From positions 1 through 16,327 of IMG/VR virus record IMGVR_UViG_2609459850_000004: 16,327 bases of DNA; one strand, given 5' to 3'. How positions within the stretch are numbered: position 1 is the stretch's first letter; the number at the start of each line of letters is the position of its first letter. The notes below the pieces were generated by a model. The model did no database searches and was not told the origin of the DNA. It was given only the letters and a program-made list of their open reading frames with translations. The position numbers and the translations under genes were made by a program. Of the stretch, positions 757-16,327 are shown piece by piece. Origin of the DNA: a virus. Lineage: Duplodnaviria; Heunggongvirae; Uroviricota; Caudoviricetes.

Positions 757-1049
757 AAATGTCTCCCTGTTTTTTTATGGCTTATGCAGTTTGCCATCCA
801 TGACGGAACGATACCGTATCCGCCTGTTTAGGTGTGGGCGATTGTAACAGCACGTCAACTGATGTCCAGACGCCCTGATTTGCTGATTTGATCATAGCCT
901 GGTAATCGCCACCCTGTAGGCTACTTGATTCTATAGAAACAGAAAAAGGCAAACGCAGCCTTTTCTACATTTTCAGAGTAACTCCCGTCAGTTGCGAGCA
1001 AAAAAGCCGCTACGCTTTAGCTATACGTGCTAATTCAAGAGAAGAGACC

Positions 1050-1982
1050 ATGGACAACGACAAAATTGATCAACACAGCGACGAAATTGAAGTTGAGAGC
1101 GAAGAAAAAGAGCGCGGCAAAAAAATAGAAATAGATGAAGACCGACTCCCCTCCCGGGCGATGGCAATTCATGAGCATATCCGCCAGGATGGTGAAAAAG
1201 AGCTGGAACGCGACGCAATGGCGCTACTGTGGTCAGCCATTGCGGCGGGTCTGTCGATGGGCGCTTCGTTACTGGCAAAAGGGATATTTCAAGTCGAACT
1301 GGAAGGTGTGCCGGGCAGCTTCTTGCTGGAGAATCTCGGTTATACCTTTGGTTTTATTATCGTCATTATGGCCCGCCAGCAATTATTTACCGAAAATACC
1401 GTGACTGCGGTACTACCCGTCATGCAAAAACCGACAATGAGCAACGTCGGCTTACTTATACGGTTATGGGGCGTCGTGCTGCTGGGTAATATTCTCGGGA
1501 CAGGTATTGCGGCGTGGGCATTTGAATATATGCCTATCTTCAATGAAGAAACTCGCGATGCATTTGTCAAAATCGGCATGGATGTGATGAAGAACACCCC
1601 CAGCGAGATGTTTGCCAACGCGATCATTTCCGGCTGGCTGATCGCCACTATGGTTTGGATGTTTCCTGCAGCGGGTGCGGCAAAGATTGTGGTGATTATA
1701 TTGATGACCTGGCTTATTGCCCTGGGTGACACCACCCATATCGTGGTCGGTTCTGTTGAAATCCTCTATCTGGTGTTTAACGGTACGCTGCACTGGAGCG
1801 ATTTCATCTGGCCCTTCGCACTACCTACTTTAGCGGGGAACATCTGCGGCGGCACCTTTATCTTCGCGTTAATGAGTCATGCACAGATTCGTAACGACAT
1901 GAGCAATAAGCGTAAAGCAGAAGCACGCCAAAAAGCAGAACGTGCGGAAAACATTAAGAAAAATTATAAAAACCCGGCATAA
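1050..1982 (+). CDS. yfdC: YfdC inner-membrane protein, formate/nitrite transporter (FNT) family
   Basis: 310-aa ORF with an acidic N-terminus followed by multiple hydrophobic segments. Recognised as E. coli YfdC, which lies between mlaA and argW in E. coli; TAA stop at 1980-1982. Confidence 0.88.
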   Translation: MDNDKIDQHSDEIEVESEEKERGKKIEIDEDRLPSRAMAIHEHIRQDGEKELERDAMALLWSAIAAGLSMGASLLAKGIFQVELEGVPGSFLLENLGYTFGFIIVIMARQQLFTENTVTAVLPVMQKPTMSNVGLLIRLWGVVLLGNILGTGIAAWAFEYMPIFNEETRDAFVKIGMDVMKNTPSEMFANAIISGWLIATMVWMFPAAGAAKIVVIILMTWLIALGDTTHIVVGSVEILYLVFNGTLHWSDFIWPFALPTLAGNICGGTFIFALMSHAQIRNDMSNKRKAEARQKAERAENIKKNYKNPA

Positions 1983-2017
1983 ATGGCGAGGGTTTAAGCA
2001 ATCGAGCGGCAGCGTAC

Positions 2018-2046
2018 TTACCCCGCACTCCATTAGCGGGTATACT
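2018..2046 (+). promoter_or_regulatory. Putative sigma70 promoter of the tRNA-Arg gene
   Basis: TATACT hexamer at 2041-2046, 11 nt upstream of the mature tRNA 5' end, with a weak -35-like TTACCC at 2018-2023 (17-bp spacer). Pattern only, no experimental support. Confidence 0.3.
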
Positions 2047-2057
2047 CATGCCGCATT

Positions 2058-2132
2058 GTCCTCTTAGTTAAATGGATATAACGAGCCCCTCCTAAGGGCT
2101 AATTGCAGGTTCGATTCCTGCAGGGGACACCA
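2058..2132 (+). tRNA. argW: tRNA-Arg (anticodon CCU)
   Basis: 75-nt cloverleaf: acceptor stem GTCCTCT/AGGGGAC, anticodon stem AGCCC/GGGCT with loop CTCCTAA (anticodon CCT), T-arm GGTTCGATTCC, discriminator A and encoded CCA at 2130-2132. Confidence 0.93.
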
Positions 2133-2293
2133 TTTATCAGTTCGCTCCCATCCGTACCAGTCCGCAAAATCCCCTGAATATCAAGCCTTCCGTAGATTCA
2201 CAGTTCGTCATGGTCCGCTTCAGATCGTTGACAGCCGCACTCCATGACGGGTAAAAAGTGGATAAAATAATTTTACCCACCGGATTTTTACCC

Positions 2294-3451
2294 ATGCTCA
2301 CCGTTAAGCAGATTGAAGCAGCAAAGCCGAAAGAAAAACCATACCGCCTACTCGATGGTAATGGCCTGTACCTTTATGTCCCTGTGTCAGGGAAAAAGGT
2401 ATGGCAGCTTCGCTACAAGATTGACGGTAAGGAGAAAATCCTGACCGTCGGAAAATATCCGCTAATGACTTTGCAGGAGGCAAGAGATAAAGCATGGACC
2501 GCGAGGAAAGACATCTCGGTTGGCATCGATCCGGTAAAAGCGAAAAAGGCTTCGTCTAACAACAATTCCTTTAGTGCCATTTACAAGGAATGGTACGAGC
2601 ACAAGAAGCAAGTCTGGTCAGTAGGCTATGCAACTGAACTTGCCAAAATGTTTGATGACGACATTTTACCCATCATCGGCGGTCTTGAGATTCAGGATAT
2701 TGAGCCGATGCAACTGCTGGAAGTAATCCGCAGATTTGAAGATCGCGGTGCAATGGAGCGAGCCAACAAAGCCCGCAGAAGATGCGGCGAGGTTTTCCGT
2801 TACGCTATTGTCACCGGCAGGGCTAAATATAACCCGGCACCTGACCTTGCTGACGCCATGAAGGGGTACCGCAAGAAGAACTTCCCGTTTCTTCCTGCAG
2901 ACCAGATCCCGGCATTCAATAAAGCACTGGCAACATTTTCAGGAAGTATCGTATCGCTCATTGCCACCAAGGTTTTACGCTACACTGCCCTAAGAACGAA
3001 AGAGCTTCGTTCCATGCTATGGAAGAACGTCGATTTTGAAAACAGGATTATCACCATCGACGCCAGTGTGATGAAGGGCCGCAAGATTCATGTTGTTCCT
3101 ATGTCAGACCAGGTGGTTGAGCTTCTCACTACGCTAAGCTCCATCACTAAACCAGTCTCAGAGTTTGTTTTTGCCGGGCGCAACGATAAGAAGAAGCCAA
3201 TCTGCGAGAACGCGGTATTGCTTGTGATCAAACAAATCGGCTATGAAGGTCTGGAAAGCGGTCACGGATTCAGGCATGAATTCAGCACGATTATGAACGA
3301 GCACGAATGGCCTGCCGACGCCATTGAAGTGCAACTGGCACATGCCAACGGCGGATCTGTGCGTGGAATTTACAATCATGCTCAGTATCTCGATAAGCGC
3401 AGAGAAATGATGCAGTGGTGGGCGGACTGGCTTGATGAAAAGGTAGAGTGA
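2294..3451 (+). CDS. intS: P4-family tyrosine integrase (IntS-like prophage integrase)
   Basis: ORF directly downstream of the tRNA and reading away from it. N-terminal arm-binding-type region (KPYRLLDGNGLYLYVPVSGKKVWQLRYKIDGKEK), C-terminal catalytic region with conserved R (LRTKELRS), HGFRHEF and a tyrosine (RGIYNHAQY). The ORF track starts at GTG 2258; I prefer ATG 2294 (385 aa) from my recollection of IntS. Confidence 0.9.
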   Translation: MLTVKQIEAAKPKEKPYRLLDGNGLYLYVPVSGKKVWQLRYKIDGKEKILTVGKYPLMTLQEARDKAWTARKDISVGIDPVKAKKASSNNNSFSAIYKEWYEHKKQVWSVGYATELAKMFDDDILPIIGGLEIQDIEPMQLLEVIRRFEDRGAMERANKARRRCGEVFRYAIVTGRAKYNPAPDLADAMKGYRKKNFPFLPADQIPAFNKALATFSGSIVSLIATKVLRYTALRTKELRSMLWKNVDFENRIITIDASVMKGRKIHVVPMSDQVVELLTTLSSITKPVSEFVFAGRNDKKKPICENAVLLVIKQIGYEGLESGHGFRHEFSTIMNEHEWPADAIEVQLAHANGGSVRGIYNHAQYLDKRREMMQWWADWLDEKVE

Positions 3452-3691
3452 GCGACCTTAAACTATCGAATAGCACAAAGCCTTGCAATCCAGTGCAAAG
3501 CTTTGTGCGTATCAGTTTTGTCTGAGTGTTCTACTGAAAACATAGTAAAATCGGTAACAGTTGGAAATCATTCAATACTCGCACTATCAGAAGTTCACCA
3601 GCCAGTCGTAGCCCGTACCTCCGTACGACGTGCTACGGTTTCATTTATCCGGTGCGCCGTAAAACCCCGTCCTTCAGGGCGTGGAGGATGT

Positions 3692-3775
3692 CAACTGGAC
3701 GCACTGGAGCTGGTCGATACTTCCGGTGCGCCAGATATTGAATGGCCTACGCCTCCGGCTGTTCAGGCCAGATGA
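3692..3775 (+). pseudogene. Relic of a second tail-fibre-assembly (Tfa) gene, C-terminal end only
   Basis: Plus-strand translation ends ...QLDALELVDTSGAPDIEWPTPPAVQAR*, the Tfa C-terminal signature (compare the minus-strand Tfa ending VDTSTAPDVIWPEQPEA). The upstream 60 codons of ORF 3503-3775 look like junk. It is convergent with, and overlaps, the 3' end of the intact tfa. Confidence 0.45.
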
Positions 3776-4163
3776 CATCAGGGGCCGTTGACGTATCAAC
3801 GGCTTTCACCGCTTTTTTATGCGCCATCCACTCAGACAATTTCGCTTTATCCTCGTCACTTATATCGCCGAGCATTAATTCACCCCGCCAGTCGGCGGTT
3901 ACTTCGTCAATCTGCTGTAGCCGTTGCTGGCGATATTGTTCTGCCGCCGCTATTTGCTCTTCATGCGTTGGAGGTGGCGCATCGACCCAAGCTGGCAGTC
4001 CAGTGCTATCTGCACCAAGCATTTTACCTTCAGGCCAGGCAATACCAGCAAATTGGCTGTAGAGGTTAACACTGATTTCAATAGCTGATTCAGGAATAAA
4101 CCTGCTTTCAGGTTCAATATAAAATCCGTTATCAACGGCGTCATAAAAGTATCTTTTTTCCAT
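3747..4163 (-). CDS. Phage tail-fibre assembly protein (Tfa, lambda Tfa / P2 gpG / Mu U family)
   Basis: 138 aa; C-terminus KAVKAVDTSTAPDVIWPEQPEA matches the conserved Tfa tail. It follows the fibre gene, with the stop of the fibre gene adjacent to its start. Confidence 0.85.
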   Translation of the reverse strand: MEKRYFYDAVDNGFYIEPESRFIPESAIEISVNLYSQFAGIAWPEGKMLGADSTGLPAWVDAPPPTHEEQIAAAEQYRQQRLQQIDEVTADWRGELMLGDISDEDKAKLSEWMAHKKAVKAVDTSTAPDVIWPEQPEA

Positions 4164-4164
4164 G

Positions 4165-4878
4165 TTAATAACCTATTGCCAATAAACAACCGGCAGCTTG
4201 AGCAGCCGTCCATGAAGTCCCATTAACTGTTCCTAAAGCACGAACTTTGACTGTCGTTCTGGTAGAGCCATTAATATCGAAGCCCCACGTTGTGCCGGAC
4301 GATCCATTCCACGAGCTAGCAGAAGCACCTGAGTCAATCGCAGTGGCATGAAGCAGAGCGTTAGGAAATGCTATAGGTAATGTAACGGTTGCTAATCCAG
4401 TCGAATCGGCAACAAATCCAGAGACCCACTGGAAAATGATATTTTGTTCAACCCCATCAATTAAAGCCGGGATCAATATTCTCCCGGTATTACCAGTTAC
4501 CCCTACAGCAGCGCCAAGTTTTGCCGCTTCTCCCAAACCAAGATTTTCGAGAGCCGTTTCCACCGTGCCGTCCGATTTGATATCGCCAAACGGATTCTTG
4601 CGGCTCAGGTATTCAACAGCAAACCCCGATCCCAGCAATTCAACAAAACCGGGCAGATCACCATTATCAAGCACATCCCGTTGCGTTTTGTCACTTACAA
4701 ACTGGGCCAGAGCTGCAGCAATAAAGCTGGCCTGCCGAATAACCTTATTGACTTGCGCACTGGATGCTTTACCTGCTGTAAATCCGGATAAAAGCGCGGG
4801 CAACGCTTCCCATTCCTCCTGCGATATAACATTGGCACTTCGATCCGTTGCAAACGCTTTAAAGTCATTTTTCGCCAT
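4165..4878 (-). CDS. Phage tail-fibre protein (short; gpH / Mu S position)
   Basis: Position between the gpI-like gene and tfa. Start ATG at 4878 overlaps the stop of the upstream gene (TGATG); the track's alternative start is 4896. Gly/Ser/Thr-rich C-terminal half typical of fibre distal domains. Assignment is by synteny plus composition. Confidence 0.65.
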   Translation of the reverse strand: MAKNDFKAFATDRSANVISQEEWEALPALLSGFTAGKASSAQVNKVIRQASFIAAALAQFVSDKTQRDVLDNGDLPGFVELLGSGFAVEYLSRKNPFGDIKSDGTVETALENLGLGEAAKLGAAVGVTGNTGRILIPALIDGVEQNIIFQWVSGFVADSTGLATVTLPIAFPNALLHATAIDSGASASSWNGSSGTTWGFDINGSTRTTVKVRALGTVNGTSWTAAQAAGCLLAIGY

Positions 4879-5558
4879 CAGAGTAATACTCCCCATGCTC
4901 CTACATCAAAACCACTGATGAATTCGTTATCTATATCAAAACCAAAAAATTTTGAGCCTTCCGATGGGGTTTCCACCGAAGGTGTTTCAATGCCTCCCGC
5001 CCATACCCCGGCGGCTTTTACTGTGAGATACCCCTGTTTAATTGCCGCAATTAACTCACGCGATACATCTGAAATATCAGTATCAGGAAAGACCCAGACC
5101 GATATCGTCATGTCCTGGTTATCGACTATCTGCATTCGCAGTCCGGATCCTGCTGTCGCCGCGTCAAGAATTACCGGAAGCGAATCATTCCGTCCGTCCC
5201 AGTTATTAATCGCAATCTTCGCTTTAAGAATGACACGATAAGTTTCATCGCTGAGATACATGTATCCAGAATCAGGATCATATGGCCCCTGCCATACCCC
5301 CTGATCATATCCAATCCCGTCGGCATCCCAGCTGAAATAGACACCTGAGATAGGCTGGCTGACAACACGGCTGCGTCCGATCCACAATCCAAGAATGTCA
5401 AGTTGCACACCAACCGCAGAGTCAATATCAAATGCAGTAATCAGCCCTCTGGTGGCAGCCGCAACATCAATAAGCGGCCGGGTCATCAGATCAACATGTG
5501 CAAGAAATTTAGGTTTGGTGGCGTGATAGTTTGTGATTAGTTCGGTGTATTTGCTCAT
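4878..5558 (-). CDS. Baseplate protein, P2 gpI / Mu gp48-like (DUF2313/YmfQ-like)
   Basis: 226 aa; ATGA start/stop overlap with the J-like gene; synteny J-I-fibre. Family recognised from memory. Confidence 0.65.
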   Translation of the reverse strand: MSKYTELITNYHATKPKFLAHVDLMTRPLIDVAAATRGLITAFDIDSAVGVQLDILGLWIGRSRVVSQPISGVYFSWDADGIGYDQGVWQGPYDPDSGYMYLSDETYRVILKAKIAINNWDGRNDSLPVILDAATAGSGLRMQIVDNQDMTISVWVFPDTDISDVSRELIAAIKQGYLTVKAAGVWAGGIETPSVETPSEGSKFFGFDIDNEFISGFDVGAWGVLL

Positions 5559-6754
5559 GACTCCACCGTTATAACGATATTTTCCGGGGTACAGGACGCA
5601 GATTCGTTATATCTGATATCAATGTTTGATGACGACAAAGCCCCAGGGGATTTCCCAATCGTCAGTTCCTGAATATCGTAATAGCGTGCATTCCCGCCAC
5701 TCACCACGCCAAGATTCGCCGGTGAGTAAATGCGACTTAAAAGGACCGAATCACCAATCATCAGACTATTGATATAGTCGGAAATAGCCGGCTGGATCTG
5801 CTGCCCTATCTGTGAGGTATAACCCGTAAAAACTTTTAATTTAATCCGGGCATAAACAGGCACATCACTGGAACGCGAGAATTTGATTACATGGGGATTG
5901 CCGTATTTATCCGGAACCGTAACGGATGTTGTACCGTGAGTGGCTGTACCCTGGCCTTTATTCCCTCTAATAGCCTGAGCAATATCCGTCACATCACCGC
6001 CATCCACAATTACAGCAACAGAGTGTGGCGGTAACCCGTTACCGTCCTCCGAACCAGTATCGTTTTCATAGAGTTTGTGGCGGGTTACACCGGTAACATT
6101 AGAAACAGCACCATCCAGTGCTTCAAATGGGGTTATTGATGGCAACGCAACACTTTGCGACTGGCGGATACGTAACTCCGCATCAGTTTCTGCTGGAGTG
6201 CCTACAGTAGCTGCAGCAGGATTGGTTACCGAAACCCAGCCACGGGTCGGTGTGTTAATGGTGGTAATAGTCCCGGCCATCGCCGCAACCGAACCGCTAT
6301 TCGCACATGTGGCCGTCACCAGCACAGTACCATCAACCCCGATTGCTACACTCGCGGGAAAATTCCAGATAATGCCGTTTTTATCCCGTGCGGAGCCATT
6401 CGTGATAGTCGTGCCAGCCGTACCGGTTAACAGAAGGTCAGCAGTAGAGTTTGTTGCTACTTTTCGCGTGATCCCGTTAATTTTCACATTGCTGCTAAGC
6501 GCTGCGGCCTGCGCTGTCGTCGGTGAAAACGAGTTGTAGATCTCGATAGCGGTATTGTTAGCATCATGCACAGCCAGAGCCACCAGCGCGACCATTTGCC
6601 CATCTTTGCTGTCTGGTTCGAGGTAGGCATCACTACCGTAAATCTGCCTGAAATAGCTGGTCAGTGTATCGAGGATTGTCTGGTAATCAGGCGCACTAAT
6701 CCCCTGGGCGGTTACCGTTGCCGATAGCCCCAGCGTGTCGAGGTTCAAAGCCAT
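5555..6754 (-). CDS. Baseplate J-like protein (P2 gpJ / Mu gp47 family)
   Basis: 399 aa; size and position between the W-like and I-like genes, with translational coupling on both sides. Confidence 0.75.
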   Translation of the reverse strand: MALNLDTLGLSATVTAQGISAPDYQTILDTLTSYFRQIYGSDAYLEPDSKDGQMVALVALAVHDANNTAIEIYNSFSPTTAQAAALSSNVKINGITRKVATNSTADLLLTGTAGTTITNGSARDKNGIIWNFPASVAIGVDGTVLVTATCANSGSVAAMAGTITTINTPTRGWVSVTNPAAATVGTPAETDAELRIRQSQSVALPSITPFEALDGAVSNVTGVTRHKLYENDTGSEDGNGLPPHSVAVIVDGGDVTDIAQAIRGNKGQGTATHGTTSVTVPDKYGNPHVIKFSRSSDVPVYARIKLKVFTGYTSQIGQQIQPAISDYINSLMIGDSVLLSRIYSPANLGVVSGGNARYYDIQELTIGKSPGALSSSNIDIRYNESASCTPENIVITVES

Positions 6755-7108
6755 TTATGCCTCGCTTGTTACAGTCGTCTGGCCGTAGATTGTGTCAATG
6801 GAGGAAGTGAAAGTGACGCGTCGGCTGTTGCCGTCATAATTGGTATCGAAGGAAAGAATCGACAGAACGCCCGGCGTGTCCTGTATGCGTTCGCGTATAG
6901 CCAGGATGTAGACGTCTGATCGCTGTTTCCCAAGCACTGACTGAACATACGGCGTACCTTCCGTCAGATCGAGAAACCACTGACCGCGCCACAGCTCGAA
7001 ACGGGTTTTTACGGCCTGGGCGACACACTCCGGACTGTCTATAAGGAAGGTGTCGTCACCCTGCCCGAAAGTGTAATCACCGTCAGCATCTTCTCGTCGG
7101 TATCGCAT
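6755..7108 (-). CDS. Small baseplate protein, gpW / gp25 / Mu gp46-like
   Basis: 117 aa; sits between the V-like and J-like genes and its start overlaps the V stop (TAATG). Assignment mainly by size and synteny. Confidence 0.5.
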   Translation of the reverse strand: MRYRREDADGDYTFGQGDDTFLIDSPECVAQAVKTRFELWRGQWFLDLTEGTPYVQSVLGKQRSDVYILAIRERIQDTPGVLSILSFDTNYDGNSRRVTFTSSIDTIYGQTTVTSEA

Positions 7109-7848
7109 TATTGCGGCCCTCCAGTAGTCCCCCCGCCTGTCTGAACTCCGCCATGTTTATGCGTGGCGACACTTATACCTGAAGCTGTCACATCATTCGT
7201 TACCGTAACCGGCCCAAGCATCGTCGCAGTACCACCACTTTCTCCCATTCCCTGAGACAGGTTACCGTTAATCGTTACGTTGCCGTTCAGCGTGATGGTC
7301 GGGGATGTGATTGTCGTTCCACCTTCAGCCGTAGCCGTAAGCTGGCCCGGCGTTTTAATGGTGATGTTATGTCCTGCAGCGACCTCTACGAACGCCGCAC
7401 CATCATCGGTTCGCAGCTGCGCGGCGCTGGTGCTGATACCACTGATTTTCTGTGCTTGCGACTGCGGGCCAACGATGGCGAACGCATCAGATAAGTCATG
7501 CTGGCGCGGGTCGACGGTCTCCTGAACGCCGCCGCTCTGCCACCAAAAATCAATGCAACGGTCGGCAAAGATCAGCAGGCACTCGTCGCCTTCTTTTACC
7601 GGAAAGGTCAGCGTGCAACCGCCGCCGCGCGGGAAGATAACCGGCACATCCACCAGCGGTTTTAATTCGGTGGAGCCATCGCCAACAATACCGCGAAGCG
7701 CCACTTCTACTGTGCAGGTTACAGCGTCAGGATCGAACGACTGAATGATGCCAGGCATCGCCACGCGCATTTGGGTAGACACTGAATCGGCAATGGCCTG
7801 CGCGGTCTGCTGCTCACCGCCGATCTGTGATTGAGTTGGAATTGGCAT
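7108..7848 (-). CDS. Baseplate spike/hub protein (P2 gpV / Mu gp45 family)
   Basis: 246 aa; C-terminus ...ATHKHGGVQTGGGTTGGPQ matches the gpV apex motif (P2 gpV ends HTHKHPGDSGGTTGSPL) and N-terminal ...MPGIIQSFDPDAVTCTVEV resembles the gpV OB-fold start. An internal Met (MRVAMPGII) could be the true start. Confidence 0.8.
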   Translation of the reverse strand: MPIPTQSQIGGEQQTAQAIADSVSTQMRVAMPGIIQSFDPDAVTCTVEVALRGIVGDGSTELKPLVDVPVIFPRGGGCTLTFPVKEGDECLLIFADRCIDFWWQSGGVQETVDPRQHDLSDAFAIVGPQSQAQKISGISTSAAQLRTDDGAAFVEVAAGHNITIKTPGQLTATAEGGTTITSPTITLNGNVTINGNLSQGMGESGGTATMLGPVTVTNDVTASGISVATHKHGGVQTGGGTTGGPQ

Positions 7849-7858
7849 AAAAACCCCA

Positions 7859-7882
7859 TAAAAAAACCAGCCGAAGCTGGTT
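7859..7882 (-). terminator. Rho-independent terminator-like hairpin (minus-strand sense)
   Basis: Stem AACCAGC (7865-7871), loop CGAA, stem GCTGGTT (7876-7882), preceded on the plus strand by A7, which is a T-run after the hairpin on the minus strand. Lies about 10 nt upstream of the gpV-like start. Confidence 0.4.
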
Positions 7883-8059
7883 TGGTATCAATTACTAAGC
7901 TACATCAGTGTGAAGTAAGGCTTTTCCGCTGCAATGGCACACATTCACAAGGTGTATTAGGATATGTTTGCAACAAGTAAGCATTAAAAATCAATTTCAG
8001 CCATGAAGCCGCCATAGAGTGGACCTGCACCATCGCATTCTTGACTACAGGAGTAACAA

Positions 8060-8350
8060 ATGGGATTTAGATTTCGCAAAAGAATCCGGATTGCGCCCGG
8101 ACTCGCGATCAACATTAGCAAAAGCGGAGTAAGCACTTCGATTGGTGGTAAAGGTTCCACCATTAACATCGGGAAAAAAGGCGTAAAGATGACAAATGGC
8201 CTTCCCGGCACTGGGCTGTCGCATACCACTAACCTTTACTCTCCCGGAAAATCGACAGAAAAAAAACAACTTACTCATAAGCAAAAAATAATTAGAAACA
8301 TCCTGTTCGTAATTATTGTGTTTATTATAATTAAAGCTCAATATTTTTGA
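8060..8350 (+). CDS. Small DUF4236-like protein with C-terminal transmembrane helix
   Basis: 96 aa; RBS AGGAG at 8049-8053 with 6-nt spacer. N-terminus MGFRFRKRIRIAPGLAINISKSGVSTSIGGKG...PGTGLSHT matches the DUF4236 pattern as I remember it; C-terminal ILFVIIVFIIIKA is hydrophobic. AT-rich. Confidence 0.6.
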   Translation: MGFRFRKRIRIAPGLAINISKSGVSTSIGGKGSTINIGKKGVKMTNGLPGTGLSHTTNLYSPGKSTEKKQLTHKQKIIRNILFVIIVFIIIKAQYF

Positions 8351-8355
8351 CGCAT

Positions 8356-8386
8356 GCCCGCCTATCTGGCGGGCTATTTTACTTTT
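8356..8386 (+). terminator. Rho-independent terminator between convergent genes
   Basis: Perfect 7-bp stem GCCCGCC (8356-8362) / GGCGGGC (8368-8374), loop TATCT, then T-rich TATTTTACTTTT. The lipoprotein stop codon lies inside the stem. Confidence 0.6.
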
Positions 8387-9264
8387 CGGCAGTCGTATGT
8401 TGCATACTGTCGCGGCGCATCCATGCTGGCTTGTACCCACTGAGCGTTTAGGATGGCTTTTCCTTTACGTTTAATGTATTCAATACCAACCCAACGACCG
8501 GGCAGACTGGTAGCAACCATCCACTCCATTTTTATATTATCCGGTTCGTTGTTAGTGCTGCCACCAGCACCGATGGGAGTAATTTTTTGCGTCTCTGGTT
8601 TCGCGCCATTAATTCTGGCCCAGCCATCAGCAGAGGAAAGATCTATCCTATACGGTCCACAAACTATTATGTAATTGATGCCAAGTTTTTCGTTGCTGCG
8701 AGCTTTCCTGCTTTTCTCATAATCTTCCTTCGCAACATCATTCATCTTTTGATAGATAGCAGGTTGTTTTAAAGAAAACTCATTCAGCTTCTTAATAAAG
8801 TTTTCTCGCGGAACCTCTGCAAGCCCCATAGATTTTCTATCAAGGATATAGTCATCATATATCTTTGACACAACAGAAAGTGATGACAGTTTTTTAGCTA
8901 AATCATTTGCAAAGTTTAGATAATTAAGTGGTGAGTTGTCTCTTATATCAATAGCTCTAACTCCACCTGTACCGTATTCATGATAAGCAGCATAAAAAAC
9001 AGGTATACTTTCAGGTTTTTTGTTAATCGCTTTAATTAGTCCTTCTGGACCGCAAGACTCTCCACTCCAGTCAATAAGCGACTTCCCTTTCGATTTCCAT
9101 GTTTGGCAATCATCAGCTGATAAAATTAAAATTGGCTGCCACCCCGGGCGTTTTTTGTAACTAACATTCTTATCAGAATTGAAGCCTGCATTTGCGCATC
9201 CAGAAACGAGCAGCACCGACAGGAAAATCACACTGTATCGAAGTCCATTCATGTTCTTATACAC
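8374..9264 (-). CDS. Lipoprotein of unknown function
   Basis: 296 aa; signal peptide with lipobox LLVSGC; strong RBS AGGAGGAGG upstream of the GTG start at 9264 (alternative ATG at 9252). AT-rich compared with neighbours. Confidence 0.65.
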   Translation of the reverse strand: MYKNMNGLRYSVIFLSVLLVSGCANAGFNSDKNVSYKKRPGWQPILILSADDCQTWKSKGKSLIDWSGESCGPEGLIKAINKKPESIPVFYAAYHEYGTGGVRAIDIRDNSPLNYLNFANDLAKKLSSLSVVSKIYDDYILDRKSMGLAEVPRENFIKKLNEFSLKQPAIYQKMNDVAKEDYEKSRKARSNEKLGINYIIVCGPYRIDLSSADGWARINGAKPETQKITPIGAGGSTNNEPDNIKMEWMVATSLPGRWVGIEYIKRKGKAILNAQWVQASMDAPRQYATYDCRKVK

Positions 9265-9308
9265 TCAACCTCCTCCTGAACGAGCTATAGTCGCCTGGCT
9301 AATCAGAT

Positions 9309-9322
9309 GGCACTGTTGCAAA
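9309..9322. repeat. IS26 terminal inverted repeat (14 bp)
   Basis: GGCACTGTTGCAAA, the perfect reverse complement of 10115-10128. Confidence 0.95.
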
Positions 9323-9360
9323 GTTAGCGATGAGGCAGCCTTTTGTCTTATTCAAAGGCC

Positions 9361-10065
9361 TTACATTTCAAAAACTCTGCTTACCAGGCGCATTTCGCCC
9401 AGGGGATCACCATAATAAAATGCTGAGGCCTGGCCTTTGCGTAGTGCACGCATCACCTCAATACCTTTGATGGTGGCGTAAGCCGTCTTCATGGATTTAA
9501 ATCCCAGCGTGGCGTTGATTATCCGTTTCAGTTTGCCATGATCGCATTCAATCACGTTGTTCCGGTACTTAATCTGTCGGTGTTCAACGTCAGACGGGCA
9601 CCGGCCTTCGCGTTTGAGCAGAGCAAGCGCGCGACCATAGGCGGGCGCTTTATCCGTGTTGATGAATCGCGGGATCTGCCACTTCTTCACGTTGTTGAGG
9701 ATTTTACCCAGAAACCGGTATGCAGCTTTGCTGTTACGACGGGAGGAGAGATAAAAATCGACAGTGCGGCCCCGGCTGTCGACGGCCCGGTACAGATACG
9801 CCCAGCGGCCATTGACCTTCACGTAGGTTTCATCCATGTGCCACGGGCAAAGATCGGAAGGGTTACGCCAGTACCAGCGCAGCCGTTTTTCCATTTCAGG
9901 CGCATAACGCTGAACCCAGCTGTCAATCGTGGAGTGATCGACATTCACTCCGCGTTCAGCCAGCATCTCCTGCAGCTCACGGTAACTGATGCCGTATTTG
10001 CAGTACCAGCGTACGGCCCACAGAATGATGTCACGCTGAAAATGCCGGCCTTTGAATGGGTTCAT
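9361..10065 (-). CDS. tnp26: IS26 transposase Tnp26 (DDE, IS6 family)
   Basis: Translation MNPFKGRHFQRDIILWAVRWYCKYGISYRELQEMLAERGVNVDHSTI...GDPLGEMRLVSRVFEM recognised as Tnp26. ATG at 10065 lies 64 bp inside the element end; the track ORF begins at an upstream TTG (10083). Confidence 0.95.
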   Translation of the reverse strand: MNPFKGRHFQRDIILWAVRWYCKYGISYRELQEMLAERGVNVDHSTIDSWVQRYAPEMEKRLRWYWRNPSDLCPWHMDETYVKVNGRWAYLYRAVDSRGRTVDFYLSSRRNSKAAYRFLGKILNNVKKWQIPRFINTDKAPAYGRALALLKREGRCPSDVEHRQIKYRNNVIECDHGKLKRIINATLGFKSMKTAYATIKGIEVMRALRKGQASAFYYGDPLGEMRLVSRVFEM

Positions 10066-10114
10066 GTGCAGCTCCATCAGCAAAAGGGGATGATAAGTTT
10101 ATCACCACCGACTA

Positions 10115-10128
10115 TTTGCAACAGTGCC
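10115..10128. repeat. IS26 terminal inverted repeat (14 bp)
   Basis: TTTGCAACAGTGCC, the perfect reverse complement of 9309-9322. Confidence 0.95.
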
Positions 10129-10154
10129 CGTGCAGTTAAGCAGAGGGCTGAATA

Positions 10155-11306
10155 ATGGTGAACGAGAGACGAGATTATGAGGTTAATTTCCTGTACTACC
10201 CGGAAGTGTTCGCTGCGGCTCTGTCGCGTGTTGAACCAGACACGTCAGTCCTGGGCTGGCTGGGCCAGGCTCGCGCTCTGGCGTGCTGGTGTGAGCTGCT
10301 GAGGCTCGACCCACTGGAGACCTGTGTGGAGTGGTCTGCGCGTGGTGTGAACGCGGGTAAGGCCGACAGGGCAATGTTAGCGTCGGCGCTGCGTGACCTG
10401 GATGACCTCGACCGGCTGGCGGCGGCTGGGGCGTTCCTGCGCTCCTCCGGGGTGGCTGCTGACGTTGCTGCCGGGCGCATCGCTGTTCGTGAGCCCACCG
10501 AGGACGAGCTGGCTGCTCGTCAGGCGCATCTGGTTGCACTACGGGAACGTGCGGCTGCTGCTGCGGCGAAGCTGACGGAGGCTCGCATTAAGGCAACCGG
10601 TAGGGCGCGGATGCTGCTGCATCGCGCCAAAAAGCCGGGGAATGCGGCGCTGTACTGGAAGGCCAAGGAGCGAGCTGCGGAGCGTTTGCTGCCGTGCCCT
10701 GACGACGTGAAGTGCTCGGACTGGAGCACGTTCCTGCCGGTGCTGGGTCGCGTGTGGTGGAATGAGTCGCTTCTGGTGCCGCTGTACGGGGTGAACGAGT
10801 CACTACGGTTGGAGTGTATGTCAGTGGAGGTGATTTGCGGTCGCGCCAACCCTGAGGCGGCAGGTTCGCTGGGCGAGAAGCGTGGCCTCGAGAATGCACC
10901 GCGTGAGGGGCTGTTTTACCCGTTCGACCTGTCCAGCGTCCGTTCTGGTAACCCTCTGGTCATCTGCGAGGGGTTCATGTCGGGGCTGGCGCTCTCTCTG
11001 CTGATGGGCGGCAAGCTGCCGGTGATCTGCGCGATGTCGGTGGGTAACTTCGGGGCGACAGTGCAGACGCTGAATAAGTTTGTTATGGGTGACTCCCCGT
11101 TCGTACTGGTACCGGACATTGGCGGGCAGGATCTGGCTATCGATCAGGCTATCCCGAATGCCCGGGTGATCGACCTGTCGGCGGTACCGGGAGCCGAGGG
11201 CGTGGACGGCTACGACCCGTTCGATCTGCTGGCGCGTCATGGTGTCGAGATGGGACGTAAGTATCTGCGGAGCTTGTTTCGTGAGGCGCGTGACGCGAGC
11301 CTGTAG
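10155..11306 (+). CDS. Toprim-like domain protein (primase-related?), high GC
   Basis: 383 aa; RBS GAGGG 7 nt upstream of the ATG. C-terminal half carries NPLVICEGFMSGLALSLL...PVICAMSVGNFGATVQ...FVLVPDIGGQDLAIDQ, resembling Toprim motifs (DnaG-like EGxxD...DxD region). The Ala/Arg-rich N-terminal half is unrecognised. In-frame stop at 10149-10151 shows the ORF is not truncated by IS26. Confidence 0.55.
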   Translation: MVNERRDYEVNFLYYPEVFAAALSRVEPDTSVLGWLGQARALACWCELLRLDPLETCVEWSARGVNAGKADRAMLASALRDLDDLDRLAAAGAFLRSSGVAADVAAGRIAVREPTEDELAARQAHLVALRERAAAAAAKLTEARIKATGRARMLLHRAKKPGNAALYWKAKERAAERLLPCPDDVKCSDWSTFLPVLGRVWWNESLLVPLYGVNESLRLECMSVEVICGRANPEAAGSLGEKRGLENAPREGLFYPFDLSSVRSGNPLVICEGFMSGLALSLLMGGKLPVICAMSVGNFGATVQTLNKFVMGDSPFVLVPDIGGQDLAIDQAIPNARVIDLSAVPGAEGVDGYDPFDLLARHGVEMGRKYLRSLFREARDASL

Positions 11307-11337
11307 TGGTACCAGGTTTCTCTCTCTCGTTGTTCTC

Positions 11338-11363
11338 AGCCCGCTTCGGCGGGCTTTTATTTG
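11338..11363 (+). terminator. Rho-independent terminator
   Basis: Stem AGCCCGC / GCGGGCT with TTCG tetraloop, followed by TTTTATTTG; 32 nt after the stop at 11306. Confidence 0.6.
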
Positions 11364-11374
11364 AGGATCTCCCC

Positions 11375-11680
11375 ATGACCGACCAGACCACCACCATCGC
11401 CGACCTGGCGCTCTCACAATCCGCGTTTCTCGTCTCTCAGGCTGTCGTTGAGCTGGACGCCATGTTCGGCGAGGGCTATGCCGCTGCTCACCCGGCTGTG
11501 CTGGCTCAATTCCTGCAGACGGCGGGGGTCATCTTCGCCACACAGCTGCAGGCTTCTGCCGCGTTCGACCTTGCCTCGCAGCTCGACCGCCTGATTGGCT
11601 TGGGGCTGGCTTGCTGCAAGCCAATCAGGGTGCCTCGCACTAAAACGCCGGGGCCGGCTGCGATCAGTCCTTTGCTATGA
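11375..11680 (+). CDS. Hypothetical small protein (101 aa)
   Basis: ATG at 11375 preceded by GAGGA at 7-nt spacing, immediately after the terminator. Ala/Leu-rich with no recognisable motif. The track ORF begins upstream at 11306 without an RBS. Confidence 0.45.
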   Translation: MTDQTTTIADLALSQSAFLVSQAVVELDAMFGEGYAAAHPAVLAQFLQTAGVIFATQLQASAAFDLASQLDRLIGLGLACCKPIRVPRTKTPGPAAISPLL

Positions 11681-11828
11681 GGCGACGCCCCAGGGGTTCG
11701 CCCCTGATCAGCTGGAGTCCGTAGACCGGACGTCTGATGCCCGGTGGCGGGCGTTCTACCTCGCCAGCTATGGCTACTGCCTCGAGTACGCGGGGTTTTG
11801 ACCTGGGCGGCGGCTGCCGCGCTACCGG

Positions 11829-12356
11829 TTACTTCAGGTCAGGCATCCGGCGGGTGATCACCGTGTTGATGCGGTCGTTGTTCCATGGGCGACCGTTCGA
11901 CTGCAGGAGCCCTGCCTCGTTCAGCGCCTGGGCGATAGCTTTGTTGTCGTAGCGGAATCCCCGATCGCGCTGCTCCTCCCTCATGCGCCGTATGGTGGCC
12001 ATCACCTCGGCCTCGTCGTAATGCCCCGAAAATTCAGCGCCAGCGGGGCGCTGTGCTGCGTTTTGTGTTTCAGATGAGTTACTAGTCAGCTTTTCAGCCC
12101 GTGGCCTTGTAGCGCGTCCTGTTGGCTTCTGTAGCACATTGTGTTTCAGCGTATTCGAGATGTCCTGCAGCAGCTCCACCATCAGGTCGAGGCGGTTGCC
12201 GCTCTCCCCCTGCGGCTCTGGTATGCCAAGGTATGCACGGAGTGCGTCGGTAATCACGTCGGTGCGGGTACGGTTCGTTTTCTCGGCCAGCTCGTTCGTC
12301 TGCTCGAGCAGGTCGGCGGGGAGACGTAGGCTGAATGTCGGGCTTTTGCGCTGCAT
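11829..12356 (-). CDS. Ribbon-helix-helix DNA-binding protein with recombinase-like C-terminal domain
   Basis: 175 aa from ATG 12356, with AGGAG-containing RBS. N-terminus MQRKSPTFSLRLPADLLEQTNELAEKTNRTRTDVITDALRAYL is a typical RHH (CopG/Arc-like) segment. C-terminus EVMATIRRMREEQRDRGFRYDNKAIAQALNEAGLLQSNGRPWNNDRINTVI resembles the recombinase-family DNA-binding domain pattern (IA..LN..G....G..W....V..I). No serine-recombinase catalytic domain is present. Confidence 0.55.
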   Translation of the reverse strand: MQRKSPTFSLRLPADLLEQTNELAEKTNRTRTDVITDALRAYLGIPEPQGESGNRLDLMVELLQDISNTLKHNVLQKPTGRATRPRAEKLTSNSSETQNAAQRPAGAEFSGHYDEAEVMATIRRMREEQRDRGFRYDNKAIAQALNEAGLLQSNGRPWNNDRINTVITRRMPDLK

Positions 12357-12860
12357 CCGTGTTGCTCCTGTGTGGTCTGGTGCCACCGATTGAAACACGT
12401 TTGTAACTTCTCGTCTATTTCGACGTGTTGCGCTTGTGCTGCATAACCGGTACGGGTCGAGCCCTTCGGCTCGACTCTCTGGTGCCAGTGGACAAGCCCT
12501 GTGGACAATTTGCCGTGTCAGTGAATAAATGCGTGGCGCGATCACGACAGCTCGATAAGCGGTCGCCGTTCAGTGGCGTGAAGGGTTAGGATCGGTTAAG
12601 CTGATCGTCGTTCGTGGATTATGTTGGGTGATCTGCGGGCACAAAAAAAGCACCTGGCCGGGTGCTTTGATTGCCGGGGTTAAACCCCGTAGTTTCGAGT
12701 CAGTGTCTTGACGGACGTACTCGAAGGAAATCATACATCACGTTGGGTGATTCTCAAATCCTCGCTGAGAATTGTATCACGTCGATAAGATCGTGCAAGT
12801 CGATTTCCTCCGTAATCCCCCGCCTGACGCCGACTCCTACGTTTTTAAAGGAGTTGTAAC

Positions 12861-14420
12861 GTGCCAAAAACTAAACAAGAAATAGCCACTGTAACGCCGA
12901 TCACCGCTGCACCGTCACCGCTGTCGCTAAAATTGGGCGATGCGCTGTTTTCTGTCTTGTCGGTGTCTGCGGACTGGTCTGGTGACTACCGCGCTCAATT
13001 CGAGCTGTATGGCCTGAATGTAAAAGCTATCAACTCTGCCGTCGGCACTGCCGTCTGGCACGCTGGCAAGGGGCGGTTCCTCTCTGTCCTAAATGGCTCC
13101 CTGACCGAGTTCGATAAGGGCGACGGAATGAAGCTGCTGGAGGACTCCTGCGGCAAGTTCTGGCACCGCACCGATGCGTTTATCGCCCGCCTGACTGACC
13201 TCAAAATCAAGACCGACGACAAGGTAACCAAGGCGTGTATCGATATGGCTCGGGCTGTTCGTCAGGCGGGGGCTGAGTTCATCATGCTGCGCCGTCAGGT
13301 GGCAGTCGTTCGCCTCGACGTGGACATGTTCGCCACGGCTCCTCGCGTCGAACTGGTGGGTGAAACTGTGACGTTCGTCCGTCCTCATGCTCCCTATCCG
13401 GTGGCTAATGCCGACAGTGACGTGGTGGCTGATTGGCTGGTTCATTTCCCTCAATGCCATGAGTTCCTCGACGCGCTGGTTGCAGCCCGCTTTGCCTCAA
13501 GCCGTAAGAATGCCTACCTGTTTTTCCGTGCGCAGTCCGATTGGGGTAAGGGGCTGCTGTTTGGTGCTGGCGGCGTTCTGTCACGCCTGGGAGCGACGGT
13601 GGAGCTGTCCGAGGGGGAGCTGCTCAACATCCTGAGCGGTGCCAACTCCGGTGTAACGGCTAGTCACTTCATGGGGGCGCTGGCGCTGATCGTCAACGAA
13701 TGCACCAGGGTGACGAAAAAGCACTTTCGTCTTGAGGAGTCGCTGGCTCTGACGCCGAAGTACCTCACGACGCAGTGCGTGAACCTGTACATGAAAATTT
13801 TCACCAGTGCCGACCCGATCCCCGGACTGTCCGACTCCGACGGAATTGACCCGCAGGTGGCGAACCGCTTTTCTATGCTCGATCTGCAGGGCGACATCAA
13901 GACGCGCCCGCTGTTCCTGTCCGACAAGGGACGCTATGTCGACAGCCTGACGTCGTTCTTTGCCGCCGAGCTGAATGCCAGGGTGGCGTCCTATCAGGCT
14001 AAGGGCTTTGAGACCGCTCGCCGCGATGCCGACCATGTTCTGGCTGCTTTCACCACTGCGCATGGGTTGGCGAATGCTGCCGGGCTGATCACCGACGCGT
14101 ATGACGAAATTCGGGCTGAGTGGGTGGCGTTCGTCCATGGGCGTGTTGCTGATGGGCACCCGGACTTCCTCACCTTCGAATCAAAGGCTGGTTTGGTTCT
14201 CCGCTCTCCTGTCGGATGCTGGGGTAAGTTCCTCGACTGGTACGTGGACAAAAGCGAACCGCTGCGCCGTGCTCGCCTGATGCATGACCGCGATCTGATC
14301 ATCGGCTGCGCGAAAAAATACCGCGATGTTGGTGGCGCTGCTGAAGGCAAGGGGGTGCTCATCCCGTTCGTGTCCGGCTCGATGCCCGACAACGTCCACC
14401 GGTTCCGGTACAAAAATTGA
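12861..14420 (+). CDS. Hypothetical 519-aa protein, candidate replication-associated (unrecognised family)
   Basis: Long high-GC ORF with GTG start preceded by AAGGAG at 7-nt spacing, followed by a strong terminator and an iteron array. No family recognised; the replication role is inferred from context only. Confidence 0.65.
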   Translation: MPKTKQEIATVTPITAAPSPLSLKLGDALFSVLSVSADWSGDYRAQFELYGLNVKAINSAVGTAVWHAGKGRFLSVLNGSLTEFDKGDGMKLLEDSCGKFWHRTDAFIARLTDLKIKTDDKVTKACIDMARAVRQAGAEFIMLRRQVAVVRLDVDMFATAPRVELVGETVTFVRPHAPYPVANADSDVVADWLVHFPQCHEFLDALVAARFASSRKNAYLFFRAQSDWGKGLLFGAGGVLSRLGATVELSEGELLNILSGANSGVTASHFMGALALIVNECTRVTKKHFRLEESLALTPKYLTTQCVNLYMKIFTSADPIPGLSDSDGIDPQVANRFSMLDLQGDIKTRPLFLSDKGRYVDSLTSFFAAELNARVASYQAKGFETARRDADHVLAAFTTAHGLANAAGLITDAYDEIRAEWVAFVHGRVADGHPDFLTFESKAGLVLRSPVGCWGKFLDWYVDKSEPLRRARLMHDRDLIIGCAKKYRDVGGAAEGKGVLIPFVSGSMPDNVHRFRYKN

Positions 14421-14426
14421 ACAATA

Positions 14427-14448
14427 ACCCGCTTCGGCGGGTTTTTTT
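14427..14448 (+). terminator. Rho-independent terminator
   Basis: Stem ACCCGC / GCGGGT with TTCG loop followed by T7 (14442-14448); 7 nt after the TGA at 14418-14420. Confidence 0.7.
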
Positions 14449-14454
14449 ATGGCT

Positions 14455-14535
14455 TGGAACCTCGCTGGAACCTCGCTGGAACCTCACTGGAACCTTCTTA
14501 AACCCGCGCCATTGCTGGTTGGAACCTTTGGAACC
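14455..14535 (+). repeat. Direct iteron-like array of heptamer TGGAACC
   Basis: TGGAACC at 14455, 14466, 14477 and 14488 (exact 11-bp period, unit CTGGAACCTCG), plus two more copies at 14520 and 14529. Confidence 0.8.
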
Positions 14536-14606
14536 TGATTTTCTAACCTTCTCTCTCCAATAACGAAAGCTCTCTCAATTTCCCTGATTACTCTTTTTAA
14601 AAAATA

Positions 14607-14696
14607 GGTTCCAAGGTTCCATCGTTGATTTTAAAAGATTTTTTAAGGTTCCAATGCGGTTCCAAGGCGGTTCCACAAGGTTCCAAGGCGGTTCCA
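14607..14696 (-). repeat. Inverted-orientation array of the same heptamer (GGTTCCA)
   Basis: GGTTCCA at 14607, 14615, 14647, 14658, 14669, 14679 and 14690 (10-11-bp period in the last five, unit GCGGTTCCAAG). Separated from the direct array by an AT-rich spacer (14536-14606). Confidence 0.8.
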
Positions 14697-15565
14697 GCTC
14701 AATTCCTGCGCAGTTGACGCGCCGCAGCTGCACCCCGTTGGGGATGCACTTTGCGTGTCGTGTTTGGATCTGGTGTCGCTCTCCCCGGTGCGTGGTTTGC
14801 ACCTGCCGGATCTCCAGCTAAAAAAGCCCGGAGGGAAATGGGGGCAGTTTCCAGTGCTGGCGGGGGTTGGCGGGTGGTTTATGCACGGTGGATCGTGGTT
14901 GGCACCGTGCATTGGTGTTTGGCGGCAATCGCCGCGCCTACCGGTTTGCCAAATCCTGCCCCAACTTTCAGGGGGTACAGGGGCTTAAATGGGGTGCTGT
15001 CGTGTCGTTGGGTTGGTTCGGGGTTGAGGCGCTTAGAATGGCTCTGGTGCGTTCTGGTGGGGGCGTGCTTTCTAACCGGTAGGGGCGCAGCTGTCGCCGC
15101 GCTCCTGGTTGGGGTTAGCGCCAGCGTTCGAGCCGGTACCTGACAGTGATCCCGTTCTTCGACATGGTGTGGACGTAGTCCGGGTTTTTCAGCGTGAGGT
15201 CGATCGCCTTGGTGCGGTGCGTCTTGTATTTGTACCGGGCTTCCTCGGGGAAGTTCTCGCCTGTGACCATCTCATCCCATGACTCTGTTCACAGCGTATG
15301 CCATGCCGAGCGTACTGCGGAAGACAACGCCACGCTGTTGAAGCAAGTCAGCTTCTTAGACAAGCGTGTGACTGTATTGTCGGAGCAGCTGAAGCAGTTC
15401 GGGAACCTCTACAAGCAGAACAGGAGTTAAGACGGCAGAAGAACGAGAACGCTCAAGAGCTGACAAAGTCGGCACCAAAAATCGCCCCTGTGGCATTCAA
15501 GAAGAGATCAGGCCCTGATTATGGGCCTAGCATGTAATGCCAGGATGAATTGCTCTCTGTGCCTT

Positions 15566-15973
15566 TTACAATTCATCTTTTTGTAAAAAACTAAGAAATA
15601 CAGGCAAAATTTCTTCTTGCATGAAAGCTGCTTCCATTTGAGTTGTCGGTAAGGAAGCCGCTCTTTGAGCGAGTTTCAAACAAACTATTTTTAACGCACC
15701 CAAACAATCTTCTCCTTGAATAACAAGGCTATTTTCAGAAGAATAATTTTTCATGAAAGTTAGGGTTGAATGCAATGCCACTGCTTCTGGCATAAGCCGT
15801 TTCCCTTTGTGTTTTGCAAAAACATCGGGCATGGCACGGTACTGATTTATTATTATGACGTGCGCTAAATCAGGCACTTGTAGTTTAAAAAGATTAGGTA
15901 AAAGGCGAAGCTCAGTATCAACAATGGTTTCCACTTTAGAAATATAAAAAATTTCAGCAATGCCACTGAACAT
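15566..15973 (-). CDS. Hypothetical protein (135 aa), low GC
   Basis: ATG at 15973 with GGAGG RBS at 5-nt spacing; 27 nt downstream of the preceding gene on the same strand (operon-like). No motif recognised. Confidence 0.55.
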   Translation of the reverse strand: MFSGIAEIFYISKVETIVDTELRLLPNLFKLQVPDLAHVIIINQYRAMPDVFAKHKGKRLMPEAVALHSTLTFMKNYSSENSLVIQGEDCLGALKIVCLKLAQRAASLPTTQMEAAFMQEEILPVFLSFLQKDEL

Positions 15974-16000
15974 ATCGCCCTCCGGTTACAGTCAAAACTA

Positions 16001-16327
16001 TCAGTATTTACCACCTTGAATAACGCTTAAACCGTTTGATAGAGCCTTTTTATGATTACTTACCGTGCCTTTCCAGCCAAACTGCGGATTCAAGCGGTAG
16101 GTTTTGCTACGCCCGATTTTAGGACCCTCTAAAATAATTCCAAACTCAATGAGGTTTTTCACGGCACGGCTGACATGGGGTTTTTGCATGTTTAAAGCAT
16201 CAGCAATGTCTATCTGCGCTACCTGAATATAATTTTCATAATCAAGTTCAGCTAAAAGAGCCATTAAAACGCGCATTTGATCATGATTTAGTTCATTGGC
16301 GATAGTGATTAGTGCTGCTTGATTCAT
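16001..16327 (-). CDS. Putative winged-helix DNA-binding protein (regulator or replication-associated)
   Basis: 108 aa; start codon is the last three bases of the window. Central segment QIDIADALNMQKPHVSRAVKNLIEFGIILEG has an HTH-like pattern. Family not identified. Confidence 0.5.
   Translation of the reverse strand: MNQAALITIANELNHDQMRVLMALLAELDYENYIQVAQIDIADALNMQKPHVSRAVKNLIEFGIILEGPKIGRSKTYRLNPQFGWKGTVSNHKKALSNGLSVIQGGKY

Follow-up and report, generated by a model that had tools for sequence, protein, structure and literature searches.

IS26 between an Escherichia coli prophage and a high-GC plasmid module: a possible end of a chromosome-plasmid fusion

The DNA analysed here, a stretch of 16,327 nucleotides called the window, is E. 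coli chromosome with a prophage on its left and plasmid-derived on its right, and the two parts meet at an IS26 element whose flanking octamers differ. The question raised by this locus is how the two parts came to stand side by side: by fusion of a plasmid, or part of one, with the chromosome, by a later rearrangement, or by an error of assembly.

The element occupies positions 9309-10128 on the minus strand, boundaries that were set by direct reading, a repeat search and comparison with ES3 plasmid4. Its left end at 9309 reads GGCACTGTTGCAAAGTTAGCG, is the IRR (9309-9322) and adjoins the transposase stop codon. The right end at 10128 reads TTTGCAACAGTGCC, or ...CGACTATTTGCAACAGTGCC in a longer reading, and is the IRL (10115-10128). 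The two 14-nt arms are 100% complementary in the repeat search and form the perfect 14-bp terminal inverted repeats of IS26, GGCACTGTTGCAAA; both the length of 820 bp and the repeat size are as given in PMC4471558. The element is the same as the annotated IS26 copies on ES3 plasmid4 at 818 of 820 nucleotides, and at 99% identity or more it has matches in thousands of records. The tnp26 open reading frame (9361-10065, minus strand) encodes a DDE transposase that scores 274 bits against the NCBIfam IS6-family transposase model NF033587 (cut-off 125) and 5e-49 against PF13610. The element is IS26 itself, and the original prediction of an intact 820-bp copy with perfect 14-bp inverted repeats is borne out. 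The "full transposase" of the same prediction is full in length, 234 aa, but not wild type, as helix 3 of its helix-turn-helix domain has the substitutions Y48D and R49S.

The two 8-bp flanks, AATCAGAT at 9301-9308 and CGTGCAGT at 10129-10136, agree at 2 of 8 positions, so that the window IS26 has no 8-bp target duplication, and no 5-mer is common to both sides of the element within 20 nt of each end. Re-inspection found no identical 8-bp repeats, in keeping with the earlier reading of the octamers as different. The sharp difference in base composition reported with it is also present: over 500 nt on each side of IS26, GC content is 0.40 on the left and 0.64 on the right. The mismatch of the octamers had been regarded as a signature of certain IS26-mediated events, a view that overstates its significance. 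Among about 70 IS26 copies in eight genomes, He et al. found none with a target duplication (PMC4471558), and the 8-bp duplication is absent from every IS26 copy in the plasmid p5-S1-CAM-01-A and in ES3. IS26 copies thus normally lack a duplication, and its absence is not a signal; being usual for IS26 (PMC4471558), it does not exclude membership of the element in IS26.

The left part of the window (1-9308) is a segment of the E. coli chromosome with 97.7-99.5% identity to E. coli chromosomes; that of E89 matches positions 1-3444 and 5371-9308. The segment begins with mlaA (1-756, minus strand) and yfdC (1050-1982, plus strand), which are followed by a tRNA-Arg gene (CCT; 2058-2132, plus strand), an argW-type prophage attachment site that was located with ARAGORN and lies beside intS in the E89 annotation. 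The prophage integrase IntS of 385 aa (2294-3451, plus strand) was recognised by the Phage_integrase families on the source contig and by intS in E89, and the rest of the segment contains E217-like baseplate and tail-fibre genes. The "AT-rich" side of the junction is a 296-aa prophage gene of 41% GC (8374-9264, minus strand), which matches phrog_3443. The assembly collection lists the exact 296-aa protein in 402 blocks; all 10 of the places shown are among tail and baseplate genes of such prophages. Between this gene and IS26, at 9265-9308 on the minus strand, lies the 3' stub of an E217_gp41-like tail or baseplate gene cut by IS26, which in the reconstructed reading frame comprises the last 13 codons, the stop codon and 2 nt. 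The insertion is 44 nt before the end of this gene, whose product is 355 aa long in full prophages and 227 aa long in remnant ones, such as that of E89. The uninterrupted target site is found in E89, SY3626 and FJ_Ec_21, where ...GGCTAATCAGAT continues directly into CACGAGCGCC, that is, AATCAGAT into CACGAGCGCC.

Within the prophage, the tail-fibre and chaperone region at 3445-5370 is unlike that of E89, where IS1 and a gene for an acyltransferase occupy this place, while identity in the prophage DNA on either side is about 99%. By its sequence, this difference appears to be the usual mosaic replacement of tail-fibre cassettes. The region encodes a 237-aa tail-fibre protein with a Gp53-like C-terminal domain (4165-4878, minus strand), which was found on only two contigs in the assembly collection, JNMD01000073.1 and Logan SRR1186794_117.

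The right part of the window (10129-16327) is plasmid-derived. It is colinear with a family of high-GC plasmids of roughly 11-14 kb to which no replicon type is assigned, and almost identical to p5-S1-CAM-01-A. The module is present in 20 of 5,426 complete E. coli genomes, plasmid-borne in all 20 and chromosomal in 0. The proposal to look for its source among plasmids thus proved well founded, with matches in this colinear family, p5-S1-CAM-01-A and ES3 plasmid4. The shared module has about 59% GC, and the genes of the family are arranged in the order 61-aa open reading frame, 383-aa, 101-aa, ribbon-helix-helix, 519-aa, 51-aa, 135-aa and 108-aa winged-helix genes, then NikA/MobC-like and resolvase genes. 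The window holds the primase-like replication half of these plasmids. The plasmid family is widespread in Enterobacterales, and some members carry tetR-tet(A).

Of the 61-aa open reading frame only the last 26 nt are left (10129-10154, plus strand), the rest having been removed by IS26, as judged from the pPSS-12_3 annotation and the uninterrupted sequence. It is followed by a gene for a 383-aa primase-like or AAA-ATPase-like protein (10155-11306, plus strand), which matches phrog_2249 "DNA primase" at 2e-8 and whose close homologues are annotated AAA, VapE or DUF5906. Further genes encode a 101-aa hypothetical protein (11375-11680, plus strand), a 175-aa ribbon-helix-helix protein (11829-12356, minus strand; PF01402 at 1e-6), a 519-aa primase-like protein (12861-14420, plus strand; phrog_35045 "DNA primase" at 2e-46), a 135-aa hypothetical protein (15566-15973, minus strand) and a 108-aa winged-helix protein resembling replication protein O (16001-16327, minus strand). 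The 383-aa, 519-aa, 101-aa and 135-aa proteins have no match in Pfam, NCBIfam or PDB. The 108-aa protein occurs in 406 blocks of the assembly collection, never on a contig longer than 50 kb. In plasmids free of IS26 the 61-aa open reading frame precedes the 383-aa gene with an overlap of one base, and the sequence across the site of the element is CTTAAGGCG followed by CGTGCAGT, or by CGTGCAGTTAAGC in the longer reading. As this sequence is uninterrupted there, IS26 must have entered the 3' end of the 61-aa open reading frame, 26 nt before the 383-aa gene. A search for an outward hybrid promoter at the IS26 end directed toward the 383-aa gene found no promoter-like site.

The junction of IS26 with CGTGCAGT is not peculiar to the window. 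It occurs in the same orientation in the IncR plasmid p5-S1-CAM-01-A (NZ_CP145712.1), which is 99.9% identical to the window over 9309-15050 and 100% identical over 15051-16327, in ES3 plasmid4 and in five short-read contigs. What varies is the other side of the element. While the IRL side is constant, the IRR is followed by ACAAAAAC in p5-S1-CAM-01-A and by the chromosome in the window, and in ES3 about 181 bp are deleted there. The donor junction on the IRL flank is old, widely disseminated and inherited from the plasmid side, and the IRR flank is the chromosomal target. The suggestion that IS26 delivered the high-GC module is reasonable, given that the junction between IS26 and the module already exists on IncR plasmids and many short-read contigs. 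A pattern scan for this junction gave no match in genome_contigs, a collection that does not include this strain. As to the DNA missing from ES3 plasmid4, the roughly 181 bp lie beside the IRR of the same IS26 and the IRL-module junction is unchanged; from its sequence the loss looks like an IS26-adjacent deletion.

The reading preferred here, to which about an even chance is given, is that the window IS26 is one end of an IS26-mediated fusion of the E. coli chromosome with a plasmid or an IS26-bounded part of one. In the donor, IS26 would already have stood against CGTGCAGT, ahead of the 383-aa primase-like gene that belongs to a small high-GC replicon, so that this junction would be inherited. 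A cointegrate between the donor IS26 and the chromosome would then have arisen at AATCAGAT, within the prophage tail gene next to argW, by copy-in transposition or, if an IS26 was already at the site, by homologous recombination or the targeted conservative route. Of the flanks of each directly repeated IS26 copy, one would be old and the other new, and the 8-bp duplication would be split between the two copies, leaving no single copy with matching octamers. One and the same IS26 copy in the cell would have both junctions of the window, and beyond the contig there would be a second IS26 followed by AATCAGAT-CACGAGCGCC. With the duplication, the reciprocal junction would read TTTGCAACAGTGCC+AATCAGATCACGAGCGCC.

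Several observations agree with a fusion. Both junctions, both uninterrupted parental sequences and the fitting orientation of IS26 are seen directly. The element thus has an inherited donor flank and a new target flank, with both parental sites known, as is expected of a cointegrate, and the difference of the octamers fits one end of an IS26 cointegrate since the flanks come from two replicons. One study reports that IS26 moves only by forming cointegrates (PMC8477213). Splitting of the 8-bp duplication between the directly repeated copies of a cointegrate, and an unresolved cointegrate without an abutted duplication, have been described (PMC4471558). A cointegrate and its RecA-resolved products have, however, the same four junctions, and evidence at the level of junctions therefore cannot decide between them. 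Against a fusion stands the absence of the module from the chromosome and of this chromosomal junction, or of any IS26 at this chromosomal site, in all 5,426 complete E. coli genomes.

The continuity of the window across IS26 depends on its source. The window is identical, over the 14,878 nt compared, to JNMD01000073.1 (GCA_000700065.1), a contig of 21,480 bp from a 2014 short-read draft. No N interrupts this contig, on which fadI, mlaA, the prophage, IS26, the module and IS903B follow one another; it starts inside fadI, a unique gene, and stops 191 nt into IS903B, and no second IS26 is met before that end. The original prediction had put the end of the module at about 15114, which falls short, as plasmid-derived DNA runs to the end of the window and continues for 634 nt past it before IS903B. 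The IS903B insertion site is common to the source contig and p5-S1-CAM-01-A, whereas in ES3 and the small plasmids a 77-aa gene and one like NikA/MobC follow at that point. A literature search for the source assembly and run accessions found no mention of them. RefSeq proteins WP_032255999 and WP_032256001, from prophage baseplate genes (6755-7848), and WP_032256007 and WP_032256009, from the plasmid module (15566-16327), have numbers that fit a first annotation from this single 2014 genome.

An independent assembly of the reads is available as Logan contig SRR1186794_117 (29,871 bp), which differs from the window at just two positions in 9,338 nt. The chromosome-IS26 junction with AATCAGAT is present in it and is thereby independently confirmed. 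Built with k=31, the contig extends into IS26 for exactly 30 nt (k-1) and then breaks off, which means that the reads of SRR1186794 contain at least two different IRR-side contexts for the element; IS26 is multi-copy in the read set of this strain. The physical link across IS26 is present in JNMD01000073.1 alone, and that a single 2014 short-read draft contig provides it where the Logan assembly breaks is an argument against the fusion. On the other side of the account, JNMD01000073.1 crosses IS26 without an N, and each junction and each parental site is seen elsewhere.

The alternative that survives best, with a probability somewhat short of even, is an assembly chimera in which the assembler left the shared 820-bp IS26 into the wrong flank. 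The chromosome would then have a solitary IS26 in the prophage gene, with AATCAGAT on both sides, from a resolved cointegrate, and the segment from IS26 through the module to IS903B would be on a free plasmid. The mechanisms first listed for this junction, namely cointegrate formation or resolution, IS26-mediated deletion and recombination between two IS26 copies, are sound, but the list left out a mis-join across a multi-copy repeat. That IS26 is multi-copy in the reads and that the k=31 assembly breaks at its boundary are both in favour of a chimera. So are the contigs carrying the exact 383-aa protein. This protein occurs in 88 blocks, in 85 of which the longest carrying contig is shorter than 10 kb; all five of the short-read contigs inspected start at the boundary of IS26 and CGTGCAGT, and the only two other contigs that cross IS26 both lead into a sugar-nucleotide gene cluster of the plasmid. 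The plasmid location of the module in 20 of the 20 complete genomes having it points the same way, and as a cointegrate and its resolved products share their four junctions, nothing at the junction level contradicts a chimera. The protein numbers of the sugar cluster in p5-S1-CAM-01-A presumably date from about 2023, by our own estimate, and judged by RefSeq accession numbers only, this suggests that the cluster is absent from the 2014 source genome.

The quality of JNMD01000073.1 is modest, with breaks in fadI and at IS903B and at least four errors of one type. At 3883, 7129, 12321 and 13270 the contig has a private G, which on one strand always follows GGCGG(G); the Logan contig or related sequences have another base at these places, and we take this to be the classic Illumina GGC-motif consensus error. 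The base at 13270 gives the V137G variant of the 519-aa protein, which was found only on JNMD01000073.1 and is probably such a consensus error, to judge by the sequence. These errors and the breaks in unique sequence would be expected of a low-depth or greedy assembly and thus favour a chimera. Against it, the same assembler stopped at IS903B rather than running through, and the contig has an IS26 that departs from the consensus. A path through a collapsed multi-copy repeat should normally give the consensus, and instead there are two private bases, a point in favour of the fusion. The predicted junction product with an intact duplication was also not found, which is a weak test.

The two private bases are T at 9921, where the other copies have G, and C at 9924, where the other copies have A, in a comparison with the other IS26 copies examined. 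They result in Y48D and R49S, which set this transposase apart from all those copies. Of the two conserved residues of helix 3, R49 is thus replaced by S, with the neighbouring Y48 replaced by D, and W50, which aligns with W50 of Pong et al., is kept. R49 and W50 are needed for end binding and cointegration (PMC8477213), and Tnp26 R49A does not bind the terminal repeats and has cointegration below 1% of wild type (Pong et al., PMC8477213). If R49S is real, the transposase of this copy should not bind the ends of the element, which is an argument against the fusion. Among 153 billion gene positions of the assembly collection, the Y48D/R49S protein was found on JNMD01000073.1 only. The pair would be either a private double mutation inactivating this IS26 copy or a consensus error, and since the variant is unique to one contig, it may be a sequencing error. 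The Illumina GGC-motif error is ruled out as the cause at 9921 and 9924, the context of which does not fit, unlike that of the other four private bases. In either case the two substitutions bear on the activity of the element and not on its identity. That the private bases are real, and that a natural IS26 with a dead helix-turn-helix (Tnp26 Y48D/R49S) stands at a genuine chromosome-plasmid fusion, is considered unlikely. If true, a cryptic primase-type plasmid replicon would be inside a prophage, and one of the bounding IS26 copies would no longer encode an active transposase.

A further alternative, which we hold to be quite improbable, is that the adjacency is real but secondary. The plasmid segment would have entered the chromosome elsewhere, or here first, and the left junction would have been made by an IS26-mediated adjacent deletion or inversion or by recombination between two chromosomal IS26 copies; there would be no reciprocal AATCAGAT junction, and the rest of the prophage would have been lost or moved. 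Intramolecular IS26 transposition is known to give deletions and inversions without abutted duplications (PMC4471558), and within the same IS26 lineage ES3 has lost about 181 bp beside the element in comparison with p5-S1-CAM-01-A. Neither the second IS26 nor the reciprocal junction was found, which counts against the fusion, and the lack of a reciprocal junction also agrees with this alternative. One degenerate pattern covering the junction of the window and the predicted reciprocal had no match in genome_contigs or metagenome_contigs, neither of which includes this strain. The predicted protein of the reciprocal junction, in which the native tail protein to ...DLI is followed by GTVANSRW, was not found in the collection in any of five N-terminal variants, for a strain that is about 0.5% distant from all its relatives. 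With that distance, and with pattern-searched collections from which the strain is missing, the miss is uninformative, and there is no positive evidence for a secondary rearrangement.

A simple insertion with a mis-read duplication is ruled out by the lack of a shared 5-mer within 20 nt and by the continuation of the flanks into different replicons; the original statement that IS26 did not simply enter continuous DNA is correct, the left side continuing as prophage in E89 and the right side as plasmid in IS26-free plasmids.

The phenomenon itself is already known, IS26 without target duplications at replicon boundaries being textbook material, and the importance of the locus beyond its annotation is small. 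If the preferred fusion is real, it adds one more plasmid segment fixed in a chromosome by IS26, in this case without resistance genes. If the contig is mis-joined, it cautions against counting either the Tnp26 variant or the primase-like module as chromosomal on the strength of this contig. Mismatched IS26 octamers in a short-read draft cannot separate a cointegrate, its resolved products and an assembly error.

Among known systems, the window resembles the IS26 copy-in cointegrates and integrated plasmids described earlier (He et al. 2015, PMC4471558; Harmer et al. 2014, PMC4196232; integrated IncHI2 plasmid of Salmonella, PMC9019673). It has in common with them an 820-bp IS26 at the boundary of two replicons with an inherited donor flank and a new target flank, the absence of an abutted 8-bp duplication from the single copy, and an orientation consistent with direct repeats. 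It differs from them in that one end only is seen, in a short-read draft, in its cargo, a cryptic small-plasmid replication module without a resistance gene, and in its target, a prophage tail gene. The IS26-bounded segments of p5-S1-CAM-01-A and ES3 plasmid4 have the same junction of IS26 with CGTGCAGT and a module 99.9-100% identical to that of the window, but a sugar-nucleotide and glycosyltransferase gene cluster on the IRR side, where the window has the chromosome. With repeat-induced mis-joins the window shares a multi-copy 820-bp repeat that is crossed in a draft contig and at the edge of which an independent de Bruijn assembly stops. Unlike in such mis-joins, the copy of the repeat in the window is non-consensus, and each of its two junctions is individually genuine.
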